DNA of 64,000 nt from an uncultured Gemmatimonadota bacterium (GTDB lineage Bacteria > JAAXHH01), in the NCBI GenBank assembly GCA_951812955.1, contig OX638340.1, forward strand, positions 1-64,000, in the 5' to 3' direction. Shown here piece by piece: positions 7,300-52,519 of this stretch (the first letter of the stretch is position 1; the number at the start of each line of letters is the position of its first letter). The notes beneath the pieces were generated by a model, which made no database searches, was not told the origin of the DNA, and saw only the letters and a list, made by a program, of their open reading frames with translations. The position numbers and the translations under genes were made by a program.

Positions 7300-7974
7300 A
7301 TGGATGTTACACTGCAGCTTTGGATCGACGCGGCCCTGACGCTGATGATCCTCAGCTTCCTGTACCGTGACAATCCTTTCTACAAATTCGCCGAACATCT
7401 CTTTGTCGGCGTGTCCGCCGCGTACCTCATGGCAATCGGATTCTGGGACCACCTGGTCCCGAACCTGCTGGGCAAACTGTTCCCCTCGCTCATGTCGGGG
7501 GTCGTGCCCGGCGCCGTCGGCCGGTCGCCGGATTACTACTACATCATCCCCGCCGTCTTCGGCCTGCTGCTTCTTACCCGCCTGGTCGACCGCTGGGCCT
7601 GGCTCAGCCGGTGGGCGCTGGCGTTCATCGTCGGCGGCTCGGCGGGATTCAACCTGCCCCGCTTCCTGGATTCGGACTTCATCATTCAGGTCCAAAGCAC
7701 CATGGTTCCGCTCGTGGTGCTCGACCCGGCTGGCAATCTGCTCTGGGGCGCGAGTTTTTCCCACATTGTACTCGTTCTGGGCGTGATCTGCGGACTGGTG
7801 TACTTCTTCTTCTCCGTAGAACACAAGGGGATACTGGGACACGTGTCTCGTGCTGGGATCTGGGTGTTGATGGTGACCTTCGGCGCCGCCTTCGGATACA
7901 CGGTCATGGCGCGCATCTCCCTCCTCACCGGCAGGATGGAAGCCCTGGGCGCCTGGCTCGCCACCATGTTCTGA
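7300..7974 (+). CDS. polytopic integral membrane protein (224 aa), last gene of the candidate operon
   Basis: AGGAA RBS before the ATG at 7300. At least 5 hydrophobic helices ('AALTLMILSFLY', 'LFVGVSAAYLMAIGFW', 'YYYIIPAVFGLLLL', 'IVLVLGVICGLVYFFF', 'IWVLMVTFGAAFGYTV'). Confidence 0.5.
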   Translation: MDVTLQLWIDAALTLMILSFLYRDNPFYKFAEHLFVGVSAAYLMAIGFWDHLVPNLLGKLFPSLMSGVVPGAVGRSPDYYYIIPAVFGLLLLTRLVDRWAWLSRWALAFIVGGSAGFNLPRFLDSDFIIQVQSTMVPLVVLDPAGNLLWGASFSHIVLVLGVICGLVYFFFSVEHKGILGHVSRAGIWVLMVTFGAAFGYTVMARISLLTGRMEALGAWLATMF

Positions 7975-7992
7975 TTGGAGACCGTCGCGCGG

Positions 7993-8040
7993 CCCGGTCC
8001 GATGTCCGGGCGACCCGGTCCGATGTCCGGGCGACCCGGT
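7993..8040. repeat. 21-bp direct tandem repeat x2.3 (CCCGGTCCGATGTCCGGGCGA) just downstream of the operon
   Basis: Seen directly at 7993-8013 and 8014-8034 plus a partial third copy. It contains the CGGACCGGG core shared with the 9-bp repeat family (reverse orientation). Confidence 0.8.
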
Positions 8041-8156
8041 ACCGGCACCCATGATTTCTGTTGCGCATTGCCATGGCCCGCTGTTATTTACTGAACCGTT
8101 CATTTCGGTCCCGGCCCGTGACGTCGGGACAGGGCGTACACGCGTAATGGAGTCCC

Positions 8157-9134
8157 ATGCAAGCCATCATCCCCGTTGCGGGCAGCGGAAGCCGGTTGCG
8201 CCCGATCACGCCAGGAACCCCCAAGGCCCTGGTTCCCGTCGCGGGGAAGCCGGTGCTCGAGTACATCCTCGAACAGATTGCCGGCCTGGGCATCCGCGAG
8301 GTCATACTGGTCATCTCCCCCTCGGGGGACGCCATCCGCGGCTTTGTCGATCAACGTGATGAGCTCGAGGCCCGGTACGTCGTACAACGCGAGCCGCTCG
8401 GGATCGGTCACGCCGTGTATCAGTGCCGCGGCCTGCTGAATGACGGCCCCGTCCTGGTCGTACTGGGCGATATAATCTACCTGTCGGACTATTCCTTCCT
8501 GGGCAAAGAACCGCCGGGCCACGCTATCGGCGTAAAGCGCGTATCAGGCGATCTTACCGGGTACGGGCTGGTAGAAGTCTTGGACGGGCGGATCACCCGG
8601 CTGGTGGAGAAACCCGATCATCCCATCTCCAATACGGCGATCGCCGGGATCTACTATTTTTCCAGGTCCGGTCCGCTCATGGATGGACTGGAGAACCTTG
8701 TCAAGTCAGATCGAAGGACCCGAAACGAGTATCAGCTAACGGACGCGCTGCAGTGGATGGTGGAAAAGGGCGAGCATCTGTCTCCCTTCGACGTCGACCA
8801 CTTGTACGACTGCGGCACGCCGGACCGTCTGCTGGAGGCCAACCGGCGGCTTCTGGACCTGAACGGGGGGAACTGCAGCATACCGGGCAGCGTCATCATA
8901 CCGCCCGTCGACATCGCCTCCGGCGCCCGGGTGCACCGATCCGTCGTCGGTCCCCACGTCGCCATCTCGTCCCGGGCCTCCGTCGTGCGCACCGTCGTAC
9001 GCGACGCCACCATCGGAACCTGCGCCCGGATCGAAAACTGTGATCTCAGGCGTTCCGTCGTTACGCCGCACGCCGTGTTGGCCGACACCGTAGAACGTGC
9101 ATCGACCGGCGCGCGTTGCGCGGTTTATGTCTGA
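8157..9134 (+). CDS. sugar-phosphate nucleotidyltransferase (NTP_transferase domain plus C-terminal left-handed beta-helix)
   Basis: N-terminal 'MQAIIPVAGSGSRLRPITPGTPKALVPVAGKPVLEY' is the canonical G-x-G-x-R-L nucleotidyltransferase signature (RmlA/GlmU/ManC-like). The C-terminal hexapeptide-like region is 'SVIIPPVDIASGARVHRSVVGPHVAIS'. Sugar specificity cannot be called. Confidence 0.75.
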   Translation: MQAIIPVAGSGSRLRPITPGTPKALVPVAGKPVLEYILEQIAGLGIREVILVISPSGDAIRGFVDQRDELEARYVVQREPLGIGHAVYQCRGLLNDGPVLVVLGDIIYLSDYSFLGKEPPGHAIGVKRVSGDLTGYGLVEVLDGRITRLVEKPDHPISNTAIAGIYYFSRSGPLMDGLENLVKSDRRTRNEYQLTDALQWMVEKGEHLSPFDVDHLYDCGTPDRLLEANRRLLDLNGGNCSIPGSVIIPPVDIASGARVHRSVVGPHVAISSRASVVRTVVRDATIGTCARIENCDLRRSVVTPHAVLADTVERASTGARCAVYV

Positions 9135-9192
9135 CCATGTACCGATAACCGATCGTCCCCGATCCTCAGGCAGTTCATTAGGAGCATGACAC

Positions 9193-10335
9193 ATGACACC
9201 TGGTTACCTCTTTACTTCCGAATCCGTTACCGAAGGCCATCCCGATAAAGTCGCAGACCAGATCTCCGACGCCGTATTGGACTCCGTCATCGAGCAGGAC
9301 CCCTATTCCCGGGTGGCCTGCGAGACCTTCGTCACTACGGGCCTGGTGCTTGTCGGAGGGGAGATCACGACAGACGGCTACGTGGACGTGCAACGCGTGG
9401 CGCGCGAGACCGTCAAGTCCATCGGTTATACGGACTCGGGATTCGGGCTGGACTGGGAGTCCTGCGGCGTGGTCGTTTCCCTCGACCAGCAATCGGCCGA
9501 TATCGCCATGGGGGTGGACCGGGAGGGCGCCGGCGACCAGGGCATGATGTTCGGCTACGCGACCAACGAGACCCCTGAAATGATGCCTCTGCCCATTACC
9601 CTCGCCCACCGGCTGACCCGCAACCTCGCGTCGATCCGGAAGGACGGCGTTGCGCCTTACCTGCGTCCCGACGGAAAGTCACAGGTCACGGTGGAATACG
9701 TGGACGGCAGTCCCCGGCGGATCGACTCTGTGGTCATCGCCGCCCAGCACGACCCGGACGTCTCCGGCGAGAAGATCAGGGAGGACATCGTCAACGAGGT
9801 AATCGGTCCCGCGCTGCCGGCCGAGTTGGTTGACCCGGGCCGGATCAAGTACCACGTCAACGCGACCGGCCGTTTCGTTACGGGGGGACCGCAGGGCGAC
9901 GCCGGCCTGACAGGCCGGAAGATCATCGTGGACACGTACGGCGGCTACTGCCGCCACGGCGGCGGAGCCTATTCGGGCAAGGACCCGACCAAGGTGGACC
10001 GCTCGGCTTCCTATGCCGCGCGCTACGTCGCCAAGAACGTCGTCGCGGCGGGTCTGGCGGAGAAGTGCGAGATCCAGCTCGCCTACGTCATCGGCGTGGC
10101 CGAACCGGTTTCGGTCAATGTAGATACCTTCGGCACGGGGACCGTCGACGACCTGGAGATCACGCGCCTGATCCGCAAGCACTTCGACCTGACGCCGCAG
10201 GGCATCATTGAGCGTCTCGACCTGAGGCGGCCGATATACCGTCCCACGGCTTCCTACGGCCACTTCGGACGGAACGAGGCGGGTTTCACCTGGGAGCAAT
10301 GCGACAAGGTGGAGGAACTCAGGAACCACGCCTGA
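9193..10335 (+). CDS. metK: S-adenosylmethionine synthetase
   Basis: '[24 protein letters not shown]', '[12 protein letters not shown]', '[27 protein letters not shown]' are hallmark MetK motifs. An AGGAGC RBS lies upstream. Confidence 0.95.
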
Positions 10336-45769: not shown

Positions 45770-45899
45770 GATACCCGCGGTCAACCCGCGCTTCGATCCG
45801 TTCCGTTTCCGCGGGGGCTGGCGCGTCGCCCGATGACGGCCTCCACAGGCCAGGGCGGGTTCGACCATGATACTCGGAAAACCGCCATACGCGGCCCGG

Positions 45900-48398
45900 A
45901 TGCGTAGCAAATCCCCTTTCCTGGCCGGCGTGTTGTTCTCCGCCTGCGTCTTCATCTCCGGAGTCGCGGGACAGGGGTGCGATTCCGGTTCCGAGCCTCA
46001 CCTGAACAGACTGGCCGGAGAAGCAAGCCCCTATCTGCGCGGCCATGCCCGGAACCCGGTGGATTGGTATCCGTGGGGCGCGGAAGCGATCGGACGCGCC
46101 CGCCGGGAGGGGAGGCCCATCTTCCTTTCCATCGGTTACTCGACCTGCCACTGGTGCCACGTCATGGAACGCAGGGTGTTTTCCGACCCCGGTATCGCCG
46201 CTTTCATGAATGCCCATTTCGTGAACATTAAGGTGGACCGCGAAGAACGCCCCGATGTAGATGAGATCTACATGGCGGCCACCCAGCTCATCACGGGCGG
46301 CGGCGGCTGGCCCAATTCGGTGTTCCTTACACCGGAACTCGAACCGTTTTTCGCCGGTACGTATTTCCCGCCGGAGGACCTGCCCGGCCGGCCCGGTTTC
46401 CCCCGGGTGCTGAACCTGTTGAAGGAGGCGTGGGACGCCCGCAGGGATGACCTGGTCGGACAGGCAGGCCGAGTGGCGGAAGCGATCCGGTCGCTTCAGC
46501 GCGACCAGGTCGCAGGAGACGGGACGGCGGTCCTGGACGAAGGAATACTCTCCGGTGCCCAATCGCACCTGAAAACGCGATACGATGCCGAAAACGGAGG
46601 ATTCGGCCCTGCGCCCAAGTTCCCGGCCCCTTTGCGAATTGAACTGGCGCTGAAAGAATACGAACGCACCGGCGACGGATCCCTGCTGTCCATGGCCACC
46701 CATACGCTGGACGTCATGATGAACGGCGGACTGTACGACCACGTGGGCGGCGGATTTCACCGGTATGCTACAGATTCCGGGTGGCGCATTCCCCACTTCG
46801 AAAAGATGTTGTATAACCAGGCAGACCTGGCCCGTGTCTACCTGCTGGCCTTCGAAATTACCGGCGAAACAGCCTACCGGGCCGTAGCCGAAGACGTGCT
46901 CGCCTTCGTCCAACGGGAGATGCGGGACCCCGGGAGCGCTTTCTATACCGCTGTGGATTCCGAGACCGACACCGTTGAAGGGCGTTACTACCTCTGGTCC
47001 GAGGAGGATATCAGGAAAACGCTTGGCGCAGACGCGGACGTCTTTCTGACACACTACGGCCTGGCGCCCATTTCCGGGACGGTCGCCGGAATCCCTGCCG
47101 TGGGTGACGTGGAAGGTGACGCGGTGGGCGTCGTGGATGGAGGCACGATAGGAGACGCGGAAGGAGATGCAGATGGTGACGCGGATGGTATCACCGGCGC
47201 GGGTGTCCTGTACGTAAGAACGGATAGGGATTCGGTCGGACCGCCCGACGGCCTGGATGAGCTGCGTGAAACGCTCCGATCGGCGCGTTCGAACCGAAAG
47301 CCTCCCGTGGTGGACACCAAGGTAATCACGGCCTGGAACGGCCAGATGATCGACGCCTTCGCCTACGCGGGGCTCGTGACGGACAACGGGCGTTACGTCG
47401 ACACAGCGGCGCGGGCCGCGGACTTCATCCTCGACCGCCTCTGGGACGACGGGTCCGGCCTCCACCGGATCTACCTGGAAGGAGCGGTTCATCGGGAAGC
47501 ATTTCAGGAGGACTACGCCTGCCTGATCCAGGGCCTGCAGAGACTGCATGAGGTCAGTGCGGAGCCGCGTTGGCTCGCCGCGGCCGAAATGCTCACGAAC
47601 CGGATGAACGAACGCTTCTGGGATACCGAGCGGGGCGGGTACTTCTTCGCGGAAGGCGGAGAATACCAGATCGTTCGCACGCGAAACGCCTTTGATGGCG
47701 CACGGGCATCCGGGAACGGCATGGCCGCCCGGTCACTGGTCTCAATGGCGCGCCTCACCGGCGACTATCGGTACCGGGCGCGAGCCGCACGCCTGTTCAA
47801 CGCATATGCTTCGTCGATGCATGAGATCCCCGGCCGGTTTACCTCCATGATCCTTGCGCTGCGGGACTATCTACACGACGAACGGATTCCGGTACAAATG
47901 GCTGGCGCGGATGGAGGGTCCCCCGCCGGGGAGCACGGGCGGAACGGAAGGACAGGCCCGGGAGAGGGGACGGACCCTTCGGGTGCGGGATTCGGCGGCG
48001 AACCAAAGGTCGTGGCCCGGCTGAGCGTCGTGGCGGGCCCGCGCGAGGAATCCTTCAACGCGACCGTATCGATCTCCATCGAGGACGGTTGGCACATTAA
48101 TGGCAATACGACTTCTGTCCCGGGACTGGTTCCCACGGCCCTTACTTTCAACGCGGATATCCCCATCGAGGCCGCCGCGATTTCTTACCCACCGGCTGAG
48201 ACGATGCGGTTCGCATTTGCCGACGCCCCGCTGGAGGTCTATCGTGGCGACGTCCGGCTGGGTGCCGATATCGATGTGGATCCCGGGTCCCTGGCGGAAG
48301 GCATGCTACTCTACGCGACCCTCTACTACCAGCCCTGCGACGACGCCGTGTGCCTCGAGCCGGCGGAGATCACGATGTCGGCCCCGATGCATCCGTGA
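45900..48398 (+). CDS. DUF255/YyaL-type thioredoxin-domain protein with (alpha/alpha)6 'N-acylglucosamine-epimerase-like' domain, a Gly/Asp repeat insertion and a long C-terminal extension; lipoprotein
   Basis: Lipobox '[11 protein letters not shown]'. '[46 protein letters not shown]' is the thioredoxin-like CxxC part. '[26 protein letters not shown]' and the downstream region are YyaL-like. The ORF-track start at 45867 is 11 aa longer. Confidence 0.7.
47104..47195. repeat. imperfect GGTGACGCGG-type repeats encoding a (V/E)GDA(D/E)G Gly-Asp tract inside the DUF255 protein
   Basis: Seen directly: gtgacgtggaaggtgacgcggtgggcgtcgtggatggaggcacgataggagacgcggaaggagatgcagatggtgacgcggatggtatc. It gives '[35 protein letters not shown]'. 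Confidence 0.7.
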
Positions 48399-48623
48399 TC
48401 GGGTTGAAGTGATCCGCAAGGAGAGTCCGGCACCGGGAGCGCGGGAGGATCGAGCGCGCCGGGAGCGCGGGAAAGAAGTTGCCGGATCCCCATGTACCGG
48501 TGTACAGTACAGGGATAACCGGGCGCGCATGAGGTTTTGGAACATCGCGATCCACGACCCGCGCCAGAGGTATATACCGTCACGTGGCCCCTTCCGGTCA
48601 CTTCGCCTTACGTACGAACCGCC

Positions 48624-50330
48624 ATGTCTGAAACGAACTTTGATCCCGATCCGCGGCTGAGCGCGCCGATGCGCCGGCATCTCCGTACCCTCGATCTGGA
48701 TACGGTGGATGCCTACAGGAACTGGTGCCGTGAAAACGGATTCAACGCCCGCCTGAACAAGACTCTGCCACAGCGCCGAAAGGAACTGGCCTCGGCGCGG
48801 AGGACCACGAAACAGCATCGGATCGATTCCGAACTCGAGGCGCATATCCGTGCGCTGGCTCTCGGCACGATCGCGGAGTACCAGGCCTGGTGCCGGACGC
48901 ATGGCGTGGGAGACGGCCTTCAGAAGAGCAAGGCCCAGCGGCGCCAGGAGATCACGCTTGCGCGGCAGTCGCGAAACCGCGAGTTCGCCGAGCGGTCGAC
49001 CACCAGCCAGCACAGGCGTCGCCGAAAGGACATGTTGAAACGGATCGCCGCCGGTGAGATCGGCGACATGGAGCTCACCAGCCCCGTTCTGCTCAGGGTG
49101 CATCACCTCTTTCACAACGCGCCGTTCGATCCGGAGGCCAGGACGGCCTTCCTGTCGCTTCTTCTGCACGTCGAAAAACATGGAAGACTTTTTCATATCA
49201 AACCCGCCGTGCCTCAATACGGGCCGCAGCCGTACAACAATTTCGTGGACGGACTCGCGTCGCTGGCCGCCTGGCATGACCGCTGGATCCGGAAGGTCGA
49301 GGACTGGAAACCGGATAGCCACAACGGAAGGCGGCAGTTCGGCGCGTTGGCGCGCCATCTCCTGGCCGAATACGACGTGCCGTCGTGCATGGATACGGCG
49401 TACTTCACCGGATTGGATCCAGGCGCGAGAATCCGGCAGGGTTGGTTCGTTCACGTCGGTGGAGGCAAGAACATCAGGAAGGCTTCCATTCCGTTGCGAT
49501 TTACGAAGCGCATGGCCCACGAATTCATCGTTTCCGCCCCGTCTCAATACACGGTGGACGCGGCCCTTCGCTGGGCACAGGTGATCGGGATGGGAGGAGA
49601 CGACCTGTTAGCGGAGGCGGTCTGCGACTCGATGCTTGGGGAAGCGGTCGGGGAGGAGCCTTTCTGGGAGACCGTCCTGCACTTTTTCGTGAACAATCCC
49701 ATGCTCGACGTGGCGCATGTCGGTCCGATCATCGATTATGTCCATCACCAGCGGCATGTCGGTCAGGAGCGGCGGAATCCGGACGGAAGCGTTCGTCTCA
49801 TCGATCCCCCCGATCCGGATTTCACCATGAAGGGCCGTACGCCCGAATCCATGTTGCGGCGGGTGGAAGCCTGGCACGCCTCGATATCCAAGGCCTCGGT
49901 GAAGACGCCCAGAACCTGGCCGTCGTCCGGGATCCAGGGATTCGAGTGGGTGGATGAGGACGAAAGGGCGGGCGAGATCCGCAATTGGGCGATCGAGGAG
50001 GTTCTCAACGAACGGGCCCTATCGGAAGAGGGCAAGGCCATGCGGCATTGCGTGGCCACCTACAGGACCTCGTGCGCCAACGGCCACCGGTCCATCTGGT
50101 CATTGAAGGTGAGTTACACGAGTTCCGGCACCGTTCGCCGCGTCCTGACCATAGAACTGATCAATAACAGGAGGTACATCCGGCAGGTGCGCGGCAAAAG
50201 CAATTCCCGGCCCCTGGACGCCCACAGCGGTCGCGCCCAGGAAGGGTGGGACGTATTGCTCCGGTGGGCAAACCAGGAAGGCCTGACGCTACCTAGGGAA
50301 GGGTCGCCGTTCATGAGGAGATTGCATTAG
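48624..50330 (+). CDS. hypothetical protein (568 aa) with an N-terminal tandem 'Y-x2-WCR-x2-G-x8-K-x3-QRR-x-E-x3-AR' repeat and a C-terminal Cys/His-containing domain
   Basis: Repeats are 'DTVDAYRNWCRENGFNARLNKTLPQRRKELASARR' and 'GTIAEYQAWCRTHGVGDGLQKSKAQRRQEITLARQ'. The C-terminus has 'AMRHCVATYRTSCANGHRSIWSL'. No confident family; it vaguely resembles PcfJ-like/plasmid-borne proteins, but this is a guess. Confidence 0.45.
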   Translation: MSETNFDPDPRLSAPMRRHLRTLDLDTVDAYRNWCRENGFNARLNKTLPQRRKELASARRTTKQHRIDSELEAHIRALALGTIAEYQAWCRTHGVGDGLQKSKAQRRQEITLARQSRNREFAERSTTSQHRRRRKDMLKRIAAGEIGDMELTSPVLLRVHHLFHNAPFDPEARTAFLSLLLHVEKHGRLFHIKPAVPQYGPQPYNNFVDGLASLAAWHDRWIRKVEDWKPDSHNGRRQFGALARHLLAEYDVPSCMDTAYFTGLDPGARIRQGWFVHVGGGKNIRKASIPLRFTKRMAHEFIVSAPSQYTVDAALRWAQVIGMGGDDLLAEAVCDSMLGEAVGEEPFWETVLHFFVNNPMLDVAHVGPIIDYVHHQRHVGQERRNPDGSVRLIDPPDPDFTMKGRTPESMLRRVEAWHASISKASVKTPRTWPSSGIQGFEWVDEDERAGEIRNWAIEEVLNERALSEEGKAMRHCVATYRTSCANGHRSIWSLKVSYTSSGTVRRVLTIELINNRRYIRQVRGKSNSRPLDAHSGRAQEGWDVLLRWANQEGLTLPREGSPFMRRLH

Positions 50331-50337
50331 ACGTGTA

Positions 50338-50392
50338 AAGCGACGGCATATGGGCGGCCGCGTTGGAAGCGGCAAGGTATGCCGTCGCTTTG
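50338..50392 (+). terminator. stem-loop (14-bp perfect inverted repeat) 8 nt after the stop of the 568-aa gene; candidate terminator
   Basis: AAAGCGACGGCATA (50338-50351) / TATGCCGTCGCTTT (50379-50392), with a 27-nt GC-rich loop, followed by TTGTGATT. Confidence 0.5.
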
Positions 50393-50596
50393 TGATTGGG
50401 TATGCTCCCGCGGGGCGCCGGAGTCATACCGAATCCTTTGACCATTGGCAGGCAATCGATCGTGCCCGTGATGCGATCACAGGTCTCGTTTCCTGCCCTG
50501 TACTACACCATTAGACGCCGAAATGCAAAAAAAGATGCACTAAATCGCTCATCGGGCACCTGATCCCGCATGCGCCAATCCAGGGACCTTTCGGGA

Positions 50597-51130
50597 ATGC
50601 CATATATCGAATCAATAACCTTTCTCGCCGCGATCACAGGCTTTGCCGGGTTGACCGCAAATATGGTCCTGGTCGCGGCAAACCGCCACCGGCGATATCA
50701 CATGATTCCGGTCGCTCTGATCGTTTTCGCCCATGTCCTTCTCGTCTGGCACTTCAGGTACGAATGGGAGATCGCCCAGGCCACGAGAAACGGCTACGCG
50801 GGGTTCGTGATATTTCATACCGCCCTGCTGGGCATCCTGTCCGCCCCGCTGGTCGGAAGCCGGCTGGCAAGGCGGCTCGTGGCCTTCTCGTTCTGCGTCG
50901 CCGCCATGGGCGCCAGCGGAGCCGTACTGCGCTACGAAGAAGTGGCGATCTATCGCCTGCCGGTTCTTGTTTTCGACCTCGCGGGACTAACCGCGCTGGC
51001 CTATTGGATGTTCAGGCCATGCGGACCAGCGAACGAGTTTTACAGACGGTATTTTGGCGTGAACCGGTACGAAAGGGAACCGGGCCGCAGCGTAGGGGCT
51101 GAAAACCGGCAAAACGACCGGGGAGACTGA
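50597..51130 (+). CDS. hypothetical small membrane protein (4 predicted TM helices)
   Basis: 'ITFLAAITGFAGLTANMVLVAA', 'MIPVALIVFAHVLLVW', 'GFVIFHTALLGILSAPLV', 'LVAFSFCVAAMGASG', 'LAGLTALAYWMF'. No family recognised. Confidence 0.4.
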   Translation: MPYIESITFLAAITGFAGLTANMVLVAANRHRRYHMIPVALIVFAHVLLVWHFRYEWEIAQATRNGYAGFVIFHTALLGILSAPLVGSRLARRLVAFSFCVAAMGASGAVLRYEEVAIYRLPVLVFDLAGLTALAYWMFRPCGPANEFYRRYFGVNRYEREPGRSVGAENRQNDRGD

Positions 51131-51162: not shown

Positions 51163-51972
51163 ATGATGAACCTGGCTGAACAGAAGGCCTTTTTCGAGGA
51201 AGAGGGATACCTGATCGTCGAGGACCTGCTGTCGGAAGACGAATTGGCCGGATGCCGCGAGGAAATCGAACGGCTGCACCGGTTTTCCGCGGAACTCGAG
51301 GCCGCCGGCGATCCGAGATCTTCGCGTTTCCAGCGCGAACCCTACGCGAAGGGCGCCAACCGTGCGGACGGCCTGCCCGTGCTTCGGAAAATCGAAAACA
51401 CGCGGGAAACCTCGGCGTTTTTTCGCGATCTCTCCGTCCATCCGAACCTGCTTAGCGTGGTGGGAGGGCTGCTCGGTCCCGACCTGCTGCTGTTCCGAAG
51501 CACCCTGATGCTCAAGCCGGCTTTTCACGGCTCCGCACACGCGCCGCACCAGGATTCGGCCTACTGGCCGATAGAACCACCCGTGCTCGTAACCGTCAGC
51601 ATTGCCCTGAACGATGCCACGACCGAGAACGGCTGTTTCTACGTCATCCCCCGAAGCCATACCTGGGGCATGAAAGACTGGGGACATATCGCACAGGCGC
51701 AGGATACGGAGCCGGCGCATGGGCACGACTTGAAGGAGGCGCCCCAGCTCGAGGTGCCGCTGAAGGCTGGAAGCGCGCTGTTTTTCCACAGCCTGATGGT
51801 GCACGGATCCGGTCCCAACAGGTCTCCCGATCCACGCAATACGGCGCTTTACGCCTACTTTCCGCCCGGCGTCCGCTACGTTCCGGGGGAAGGCAGCCCC
51901 AGGGTGAAAACCTATCCGGTGGCGTGCGGTCTGGACGGAAAGAAGACCTTCACGCTTGAGGCCGCGGGTTAG
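51163..51972 (+). CDS. phytanoyl-CoA dioxygenase (PhyH) family Fe(II)/2OG oxygenase (second copy in the window)
   Basis: 'FFEEEGYLIVEDLLSEDEL', 'PHQDSAYWP' (HxD), 'HSLMVHGSGPNRS' (distal His, Arg). GGGAGG RBS upstream. Confidence 0.75.
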   Translation: MMNLAEQKAFFEEEGYLIVEDLLSEDELAGCREEIERLHRFSAELEAAGDPRSSRFQREPYAKGANRADGLPVLRKIENTRETSAFFRDLSVHPNLLSVVGGLLGPDLLLFRSTLMLKPAFHGSAHAPHQDSAYWPIEPPVLVTVSIALNDATTENGCFYVIPRSHTWGMKDWGHIAQAQDTEPAHGHDLKEAPQLEVPLKAGSALFFHSLMVHGSGPNRSPDPRNTALYAYFPPGVRYVPGEGSPRVKTYPVACGLDGKKTFTLEAAG

Positions 51973-52216
51973 GGTCGTATTCCGGTTCCGTTACGGCCAT
52001 GCTTGCCTACAAACACACATTTATCGATTTATAGTTCCGGTTACAATAAAAATAAACTATATTATAATTATAAATCACATTTAATGATGGCATCCCGGGT
52101 CCGAAGCGGAACGCCATGGCGAGGGCGATTGGCAGGCAAACCAAGCTCCCGCAATGGATGCCGTCCTTATCGGTTCGTTTTCCTGAGACCAGTCAGCACC
52201 GAGTCGGGGAGATTTC

Positions 52217-52396
52217 ATGCGAAACACAGAAGCGCAACAGATCAACGCGGCACTGAATGAATTGCGTGGAGAACTACGCGAGGTAGTCATCCTGTTGTCG
52301 ACGATAGCCAGGTACATAGACGATTTCCGGTACGAGACGCACAAGTTGAACCGGTACTTGCGGAGAATCCCCCGCGAAGATCAGTCCGGGGCCTGA
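52217..52396 (+). CDS. possible small ORF (59 aa), below the ORF-track cutoff
   Basis: ATG at 52217 is preceded by GGGGAG. It encodes 'MRNTEAQQINAALNELRGELREVVILLSTIARYIDDFRYETHKLNRYLRRIPREDQSGA', an amphipathic/coiled-coil-like peptide. It sits right after an AT-rich island. Confidence 0.3.
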   Translation: MRNTEAQQINAALNELRGELREVVILLSTIARYIDDFRYETHKLNRYLRRIPREDQSGA

Positions 52397-52519
52397 CCCG
52401 CGGTTCCAAGCTGTCCGCGCTGCAGGTGCGCCCCCGTGCTGACCGTGCGATCCATGGAACCCTTGCCGTCCTTGCCCGTCCTTGCCGTCCAGACGATACG
52501 CACCTTCCGTGAGCTTCCT

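Follow-up and report, generated by a model that had tools for sequence, protein, structure and literature searches.

Does the gene at the centre of this locus stand alone, as an orphan in an accessory patch of the genome, or does it belong to a known family, and does the hairpin that follows it belong to the gene at all? The locus lies in a 64,000-nucleotide stretch of DNA from an uncultured Gemmatimonadota bacterium (contig OX638340.1, assembly GCA_951812955.1, positions 1 to 64,000; hereafter the window), where a coding sequence (CDS) on the plus strand is followed by a hairpin with a 14-bp stem. A first-pass annotation made from the letters alone had described an orphan protein with a duplicated WCR motif and a C-terminal Cys/His module, closed by the hairpin and resembling nucleic-acid-binding or plasmid- or phage-associated proteins, though left unassigned. 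The sequence features that it described largely hold, but its interpretation of the gene as orphan, accessory and mobile mostly does not. The joint reading that we favour, and judge somewhat likelier to be right than wrong, is that the gene encodes a chromosomal member of the PcfJ family that would combine a nucleic-acid tether with a ligand-binding domain, and that a small RNA gene on the minus strand converges on it.

The protein, its family and its gene order

The CDS (48624..50330, plus strand) runs from an ATG at 48624 to a TAG stop codon at 50328-50330 and encodes 568 amino acids, the length given previously; it is supported by the open reading frame (ORF) list and the sequence, by homologues and by its Pfam match. 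A mechanical ORF call extends 5' to a TTG at 48537, and we take the ATG as the start because the homologues begin at that position rather than at the TTG. The protein is not an orphan. A word-indexed search returned 307 homologues (many of them full-length at 40-95% identity, with full-length homologues spanning 40-97% overall), whose source names include Gemmatimonadetes, Latescibacteria, Chthonomonadaceae and Gemmataceae, and an exhaustive profile search returned 7,452 cluster representatives at E<=1e-3 (2,104 at E<=1e-30). Relatives are encoded at 271 loci in species genomes, many of them on closed chromosomes of 4-8 Mb, and one relative, at 97% identity, is from the sponge-derived 'Gemmatimonadetes bacterium APA_bin_41'. 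The full 568-residue protein has no match in NCBIfam or PADLOC, and PHROGs yields only weak matches, to the PcfJ core, in families of unassigned function.

Family membership is carried by the C-terminal alpha/beta domain (residues ~379-568; 49758..50327, plus strand), as seen in an AlphaFold2 (AF2) model. Residues 457-532 (49992-50219) score 39.9 bits with Pfam PcfJ (PF14284), above its cut-off of 25 (E 4.7e-10), and the same model matches 34 of 34 aligned homologues. Alignment with hhalign to a Pseudomonas plasmid 'PcfJ domain-containing protein' gave a probability of 96.7 (E 3.4e-10), bringing the motifs EG-AM-HCV-Y-C and Q-RG-N into register. The Cys/His cluster noticed earlier (HCVATYRTSCANGH, residues 475-488, 50046-50087 on the plus strand) falls within the Pfam match and is therefore the core of a known family; E469, G470, C476, V477, Y480, C484, T509, R523, G524 and N527 are invariant in the alignment. 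With the plasmid PcfJ proteins the window protein shares a core of ~130 residues (residues 406-536) and the motifs W-H, E-G-x-x-M-x-H-C-V-x-x-Y-x3-C, T and Q-x-R-G-x-x-N. The family is named after PcfJ of the Enterococcus faecalis plasmid pCF10, so that its founding member sits on a conjugative plasmid, whereas the window gene is chromosomal and syntenic and lies on neither a conjugative plasmid nor a phage; membership stands nonetheless, because such a location does not define PF14284. Source databases already label members of this subfamily 'PcfJ domain-containing protein', and the window protein is a new PcfJ member.

The subfamily consists of three parts: one to three basic WCR helix-loop-helix repeats, an all-helical domain of ~230 residues and the PcfJ alpha/beta domain. 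Plasmid PcfJ proteins share the core only, and the repeats and helical domain are specific to the window subfamily and one huge phage. The duplication of the WCR motif is a genuine internal repeat with a unit of ~48 residues: repeat 1 (residues 14-62; 48663..48809, plus strand) and repeat 2 (residues 70-118; 48831..48977, plus strand), the latter placed by the alignment of homologues, are 38% identical over 48 residues (BLASTP E 3e-13; similarity z-score 17 over 2000 shuffles). Repeat 1 comprises a short helix, a helix bearing Y-x2-W-C-R, a loop and the onset of a long basic helix (AF2 helices at residues 14-22, 28-37 and 48-77) and carries a net charge of +7; residues 1-145, which hold both repeats and the long basic helices, carry +14. 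Repeat 2 is the copy retained in all homologues, with Y86, W89 and C90 invariant, and the repeat occurs once in 26 homologues, twice in 90 and three times in 3. The middle domain (residues ~146-378; 49059..49757, plus strand) is all-alpha and conserved and has no recognisable relative. The full-protein AF2 model has a predicted local distance difference test (pLDDT) score of 87.8 and a predicted template modelling (pTM) score of 0.71, and another AF2 model reaches a pLDDT of 89. A profile search with the repeat, which the first-pass annotation had proposed, found nothing at E<=0.01 in a protein collection of 5.8 billion sequences, probably because 49 residues cannot attain significance in a collection of that size.

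Several variations on this architecture were seen among the relatives. Five proteins (P0232, P0234, P0235, P0263 and P0229) have an N-terminal SF0329-family domain (PF25753 / NF049912) in place of the WCR repeats, which in P0263 contains a C-x-C-C motif; a literature search on SF0329 found nothing relevant. In P0121 (968 residues) the repeat-plus-helical module is duplicated in tandem. The 8.1-Mb Latescibacterota chromosome OZ252228.1 (loci L074 and L087) encodes two paralogues of the subfamily ~1 Mb apart; one has a single repeat, whereas the other also spans the first-repeat region. In a Tara Oceans metagenome-assembled genome (L025, 7887-9512) the homologue has a single WCR repeat and is broken into two ORFs (7887-9086 and 9162-9512), either by a frameshift or pseudogenisation or through an error of assembly.

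The gene order around the CDS is YceG, RuvX, TauD, M20 peptidase, Lpd, Thioredox_DsbH, PcfJ, a small membrane protein and PhyH, in the window and in its relatives (proteins 68-95% identical), and it is kept in ~20 sponge-associated Gemmatimonadota/Latescibacterota genomes (68-97% identical). Over 14 syntenic genomes nucleotide identity is ~78% for the PcfJ CDS and ~55-60% for the upstream Thioredox_DsbH gene. The PcfJ gene is thus core-like and chromosomal in the window lineage, since its synteny is stable, its guanine-plus-cytosine (GC) content is normal, the window contains no tRNA gene and there are no meaningful flanking repeats; the protein is cytoplasmic and vertically inherited.

The downstream block and its strand

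The hairpin said to close the gene is present just after the stop codon, and its stem is as perfect as described: the arms of H1 (50337..50391), at 50337-50350 and 50378-50391, are fully complementary over 14 bp and enclose a 27-nucleotide loop with an inner stem of 5 bp. The stem sequence occurs once only in the window, and the surrounding 86 nucleotides (50325-50410) have a folding energy of -41.1 kcal/mol (z -4.0). H1 itself was annotated without a strand. What does not hold is that the hairpin simply ends the gene, for it is part of a larger conserved element that fits the opposite strand better. In the DNA downstream of the relatives' genes, H1 is almost unchanged (its outer stem is invariant across 20 relatives) and is followed by two more hairpins, corresponding in the window to helices H2 (50394-50435) and H3 (50447-50497), both assigned to the minus strand. 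The conservation peak of the whole 6.5-kb syntenic region falls here, at 50364-50483 (81-91% identity, against 16-42% for other intergenic DNA). Together these helices make up a conserved structured non-coding block (50331..50548, minus strand), a candidate small RNA of ~170-215 nucleotides supported by conservation, pairing, wobble pairs and fold.

That the block acts as RNA is suggested by its pattern of change. When 22 sequences are aligned by fitting to the model, 98% of cells at paired positions are compatible with pairing, and changes on both sides occur at 11 pairs, against 3.4 in shuffled alignments (none of 500 reaches 11) and 1-4 in slid controls; read as minus-strand RNA, the window's copy has a folding energy of -84.3 kcal/mol (z -5.8). 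We ruled out a small ORF within 50331-50548, because the block contains single-base indels and no conserved start codon. A covariance model finds two divergent copies: one in L025 (56 bits), which adjoins the PcfJ gene, has its H1 changes compensated and carries CCUCCU in the H2 loop, with TGGTATAAT upstream, and a partial one in L005, 1.5 kb from the PcfJ gene. A pattern scan of metagenomes for the hairpin found only two further copies (L088 and L089), and no such RNA lies within 8 kb of the gene in other PcfJ clades. Against Rfam 15, nothing in 50250-50650 reaches E<=1, and the whole window contains no match at gathering level. The element nonetheless resembles known small RNAs in the manner of its ending, where a U-run comes after a GC-rich hairpin, as in RsaE/RoxS-type RNAs and terminators, and in its unpaired C-rich motifs (CCUU, UUCC, CCCC and, in L025, CCUCCU), which could pair with ribosome-binding sites; trans-acting small RNAs of the RsaE/RoxS type carry C-rich loops. 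It differs from them in lacking any sequence or covariance match to Rfam and in hairpin stems that are unusually invariant in sequence.

The strand was judged from the U-runs and from the wobble pairs. On the minus strand H1 is followed by a U-run (7-8 of 9 positions) in 17 of the 22 distinct variants, which therefore have a GC-rich stem directly before a U-run, the arrangement of an intrinsic terminator; averaged over the 22, the minus strand has 7.0 U in the nine positions after H1 and the plus strand 3.9. Counts of G·U against A-C combinations favour the minus strand by 21 to 8 overall (by helix, 8 to 1 in H2 and 8 to 2 in H1). We therefore consider it probable, on these sequence comparisons, that the hairpin is the terminator stem of a conserved minus-strand small RNA gene convergent with the PcfJ gene, and we treat that gene as a candidate. 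Several points tell against it. The pair counts rest on an alignment that was fitted to the RNA model itself; the window's own tails are weak on both strands, the minus-strand one (UUUACACGU) being poor with 4 of 9 U and the plus-strand one (UUUGUGAUU) having 6 of 9; H3 favours neither strand (5 to 5); and a sigma-70 promoter scan for the RNA found none that was convincing, hand inspection adding only the extended -10 sequence TGGTATAAT in L025. Our terminator scan omitted H1, whose loop exceeds the 8-nucleotide maximum of the scan.

The alternative that survives best is that the block and its hairpin act on the plus strand, as both terminator and 3' untranslated region of the PcfJ mRNA, as a leader or regulatory site for the membrane-protein and PhyH genes, or as a protein site at the level of DNA. 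The window's better plus-strand tail, the equal tolerance of G·U in H3 on both strands and the position of the block directly upstream of a strongly conserved gene pair all agree with it, and the sequence invariance of both H1 arms would suit a DNA or protein contact specific for that sequence. Yet most variants have their U-run on the minus strand only, the wobbles in H1 and H2 favour that strand, the minus-strand loops are C-rich like those of known regulatory RNAs, and in L025 the element stays beside PcfJ while the gene on its far side is an ABC ATPase and not the membrane protein. We regard the plus-strand explanation as possible and clearly the less probable of the two. In the window, given the poor minus-strand run and the 6 of 9 U of the plus-strand tail, the hairpin may act both ways, as a bidirectional terminator that also stops transcription of the PcfJ gene.

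A proposed tether and ligand-binding domain

What the protein does can be approached, tentatively, through its modelled fold. The AF2 elements of the PcfJ domain follow the order b(451-459), a(463-473), a(477-486), b(489-498), b(504-513), b(518-523), a(536-552), and this b1-a1-a2-b2-b3-b4-a3 order is, in the model, that of the first half of the GNAT fold. C476 opens helix a2, and the R-G-x-x-N loop sits between b4 and a3. GNAT enzymes carry motif A (Q/R-x-x-G-x-G/A) at the b4-a3 loop, where they bind the pyrophosphate of CoA; the corresponding window residues are Q521-V-R-G524-K-S, and a plasmid homologue has QLRGRA, which fits the motif. From the half-fold order, the position of Cys476 at a2 and the placing of R-G-x-x-N at the CoA-pyrophosphate site we propose small-ligand binding or transfer. 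In the mechanism that we have in mind, the basic WCR repeats, whose conserved positions can be aligned with the SAP motif, would hold the protein on DNA or RNA, and the PcfJ domain would be the working part, binding or transferring a small (CoA- or nucleotide-like) ligand on a substrate associated with the nucleic acid. Nucleic-acid binding is plausible; the mechanism as a whole, tethering by the repeats together with ligand binding or transfer in a GNAT-like pocket, we put forward only tentatively.

A number of observations weigh against this mechanism. Of the GNAT fold the second half (b5-a4-b6) is missing: its elements in the model run from b1 to a3 only (residues 451-552), in a protein that ends at 568, so that the complete order b1-a1-a2-b2-b3-b4-a3-b5-a4-b6 does not appear in the AF2 model; the last motif-A position varies in the family (C/S/F/H/Y/G) and is not constrained to G/A; and the resemblance of the PcfJ domain to GNATs is weak. 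So is that of the repeats to SAP: the two-helix WCR unit has hydrophobic-x-E-aromatic/Leu, G-hydrophobic and K in the same register, but its invariant W-C pair is no SAP feature, Pfam SAP (PF02037) matches one of 36 repeat units (E 0.015) and leaves the other 35 without a match, and hhalign against a SAP alignment of our own making gave a probability of 14%, in the expected register. The clades examined share no conserved partner gene, and we found no characterised PcfJ protein in the literature searched, where the name overlaps with that of the C. elegans pCFJ plasmids.

Taken further, the same fold could make the PcfJ domain a true, divergent GNAT N-acyltransferase that uses acyl-CoA, to which the Q-x-R-G-R/K loop between b4 and a3 lends some colour; this seems unlikely, as no sequence profile links the domain to acetyltransferase families. 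No acetyltransferase Pfam model matches the protein at E<=1, a sequence-profile search of the Protein Data Bank (PDB) gave an insignificant best match (E 0.48) and no acetyltransferase, and Foldseek against the PDB gave nothing significant, although GNATs recur among its weak matches. The invariant Cys, Tyr and Glu of a1-a2 are likewise not GNAT features. It is less probable again that the Cys/His cluster is a zinc-binding module and the protein a non-enzymatic, DNA- or RNA-binding regulator. H475, C476, C484 and H488 do lie within 14 residues of the window sequence, and the N-terminus is strongly basic; a four-ligand site is unlikely because invariance is confined to the two cysteines: several homologues have Asn in place of H475, and the His at 488 lacks conservation. 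The cysteines, moreover, are eight positions from each other in a single predicted helix of an alpha/beta domain, C476 opening it and C484 falling inside it, with no knuckle or ribbon, and no zinc-finger Pfam model matches.

Chromosomal setting and meaning

The resemblance to plasmid and phage proteins that had been suggested for the gene stands at the level of the domain and fails in the window genome, where the gene is a conserved chromosomal one. A tblastn search with the full-length protein matched none of 72,556 plasmids, a collection that does not include KP347127, an IncI2 plasmid with pcfJ. A 127-residue core weakly matches 256 plasmids in it (34-38% identity over ~83 residues; 130 Enterococcus and 70 Pseudomonas records among them), where the products are annotated 'PcfJ domain-containing protein', and a 595-kb uncultured phage encodes a homologue of residues 173-558 (35.7% identity, E 6e-62). 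A search of the protein collection with a plasmid PcfJ core returned nothing, and in the literature searched pcfJ appears only among listed genes, those of pCF10 and of the IncI2 backbone ('...hha-topB-pcfJ').

The neighbourhood was also described as having short intergenic gaps and as an accessory patch ending at an AT-rich island. The gaps measure 225 nucleotides upstream and 239 downstream of the PcfJ gene, the GC content of the gene (0.59-0.65) equals that of its flanks, the block is the one syntenic in ~20 genomes, and the low-GC dip near 52000 is a single intergenic stretch of ~400 nucleotides (GC 0.47-0.52). Direct repeats flanking the PcfJ gene are at chance level, and we found none of the marks of a genomic island (deviant composition, a tRNA gene or att-like repeats, variable presence). 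Although the domain is common on plasmids (mostly of Enterococcus and Pseudomonas) and in conjugative backbones, the large phage has a homologue, and McrB/McrC genes often lie directly downstream in another clade, the idea that the gene is cargo of a plasmid, phage or island (an anti-defence or DNA-entry factor, for example) is very improbable in view of the shared gene order of the ~20 genomes, purifying selection on PcfJ exceeding that on the neighbouring gene, a GC content equal to the flanks with neither a tRNA gene in the window nor a significant flanking repeat, and the failure of the full-length protein to match any plasmid.

In more distant clades the neighbours differ and are again stable within each clade. 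In one such clade the PcfJ gene is preceded by a TPP enzyme and followed by a MacB-type permease; another has a PALP enzyme overlapping the PcfJ start by 8 nucleotides and variable genes downstream, with McrB/McrC in several genomes. Thioredox_DsbH was considered as a conserved partner and rejected, being upstream only in the window clade and its nearest sister. In a Latescibacterota clade an AAA_5 McrB-like ATPase often lies directly downstream of PcfJ (L007, 11765-14663; also L050, L053, L055, L056 and L073), followed in L007 by an McrC gene; other genomes of this clade have unrelated genes there, and the site looks like a variable slot for defence genes.

Other features of the window's own neighbourhood are as follows. 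Downstream on the plus strand lie genes for a 186-residue predicted membrane protein without a Pfam match (50570-51130) and for a PhyH dioxygenase (51163-51972), which are 79-90% identical in nucleotide sequence across the clade, exceeding the Thioredox_DsbH gene, and may form an operon. The gap that follows (51973-52435, ~460 nucleotides, GC 0.47-0.52) contains a promoter-like site at 52040-52068 (plus strand). At the matching position L004 has a minus-strand gene of the aminoglycoside-phosphotransferase (APH) family, and the place has the look of a small variable spot, not of the border of an island. Upstream, the Thioredox_DsbH gene (45867-48398) contains a segment of Gly/Asp/Ala-rich repeats (47064-47243; 18-46% identity, its least conserved part) that is probably a variable linker insert, and the poorly conserved intergenic DNA before the PcfJ gene carries a tandem-like direct repeat, GCACCGGGAGCGCGGGA, in two copies 26 nucleotides apart (48430-48472).

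A bolder idea is that the PcfJ protein and the structured RNA lying tail to tail with it form a functional pair, in which the WCR repeats would bind the RNA or the RNA would control the gene, with PcfJ as a truncated GNAT-like enzyme that modifies nucleic acid or a bound protein. The persistence of the RNA beside PcfJ in L025, despite a different gene on its other side, hints at such a pair, and the PcfJ clades that have no such RNA within 8 kb count against it; we think it a long shot. If true, it would open a first way into the function of a domain that thousands of plasmids, phages and chromosomes carry.

Neither the PcfJ finding nor the RNA finding is surprising enough to alter current views. 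PcfJ is widespread, as the 7,452 cluster representatives attest, and common on conjugative plasmids and phages, and in the lineage of this locus a PcfJ protein has become a strongly conserved chromosomal gene. It offers a confident structural model together with invariant residues for mutation (C476, Y480, C484, R523, G524 and N527). As far as we are aware, regulatory RNAs are little documented in Gemmatimonadota and Latescibacterota, and the locus also suggests that sponge-associated members of these phyla have a structured RNA that Rfam lacks.

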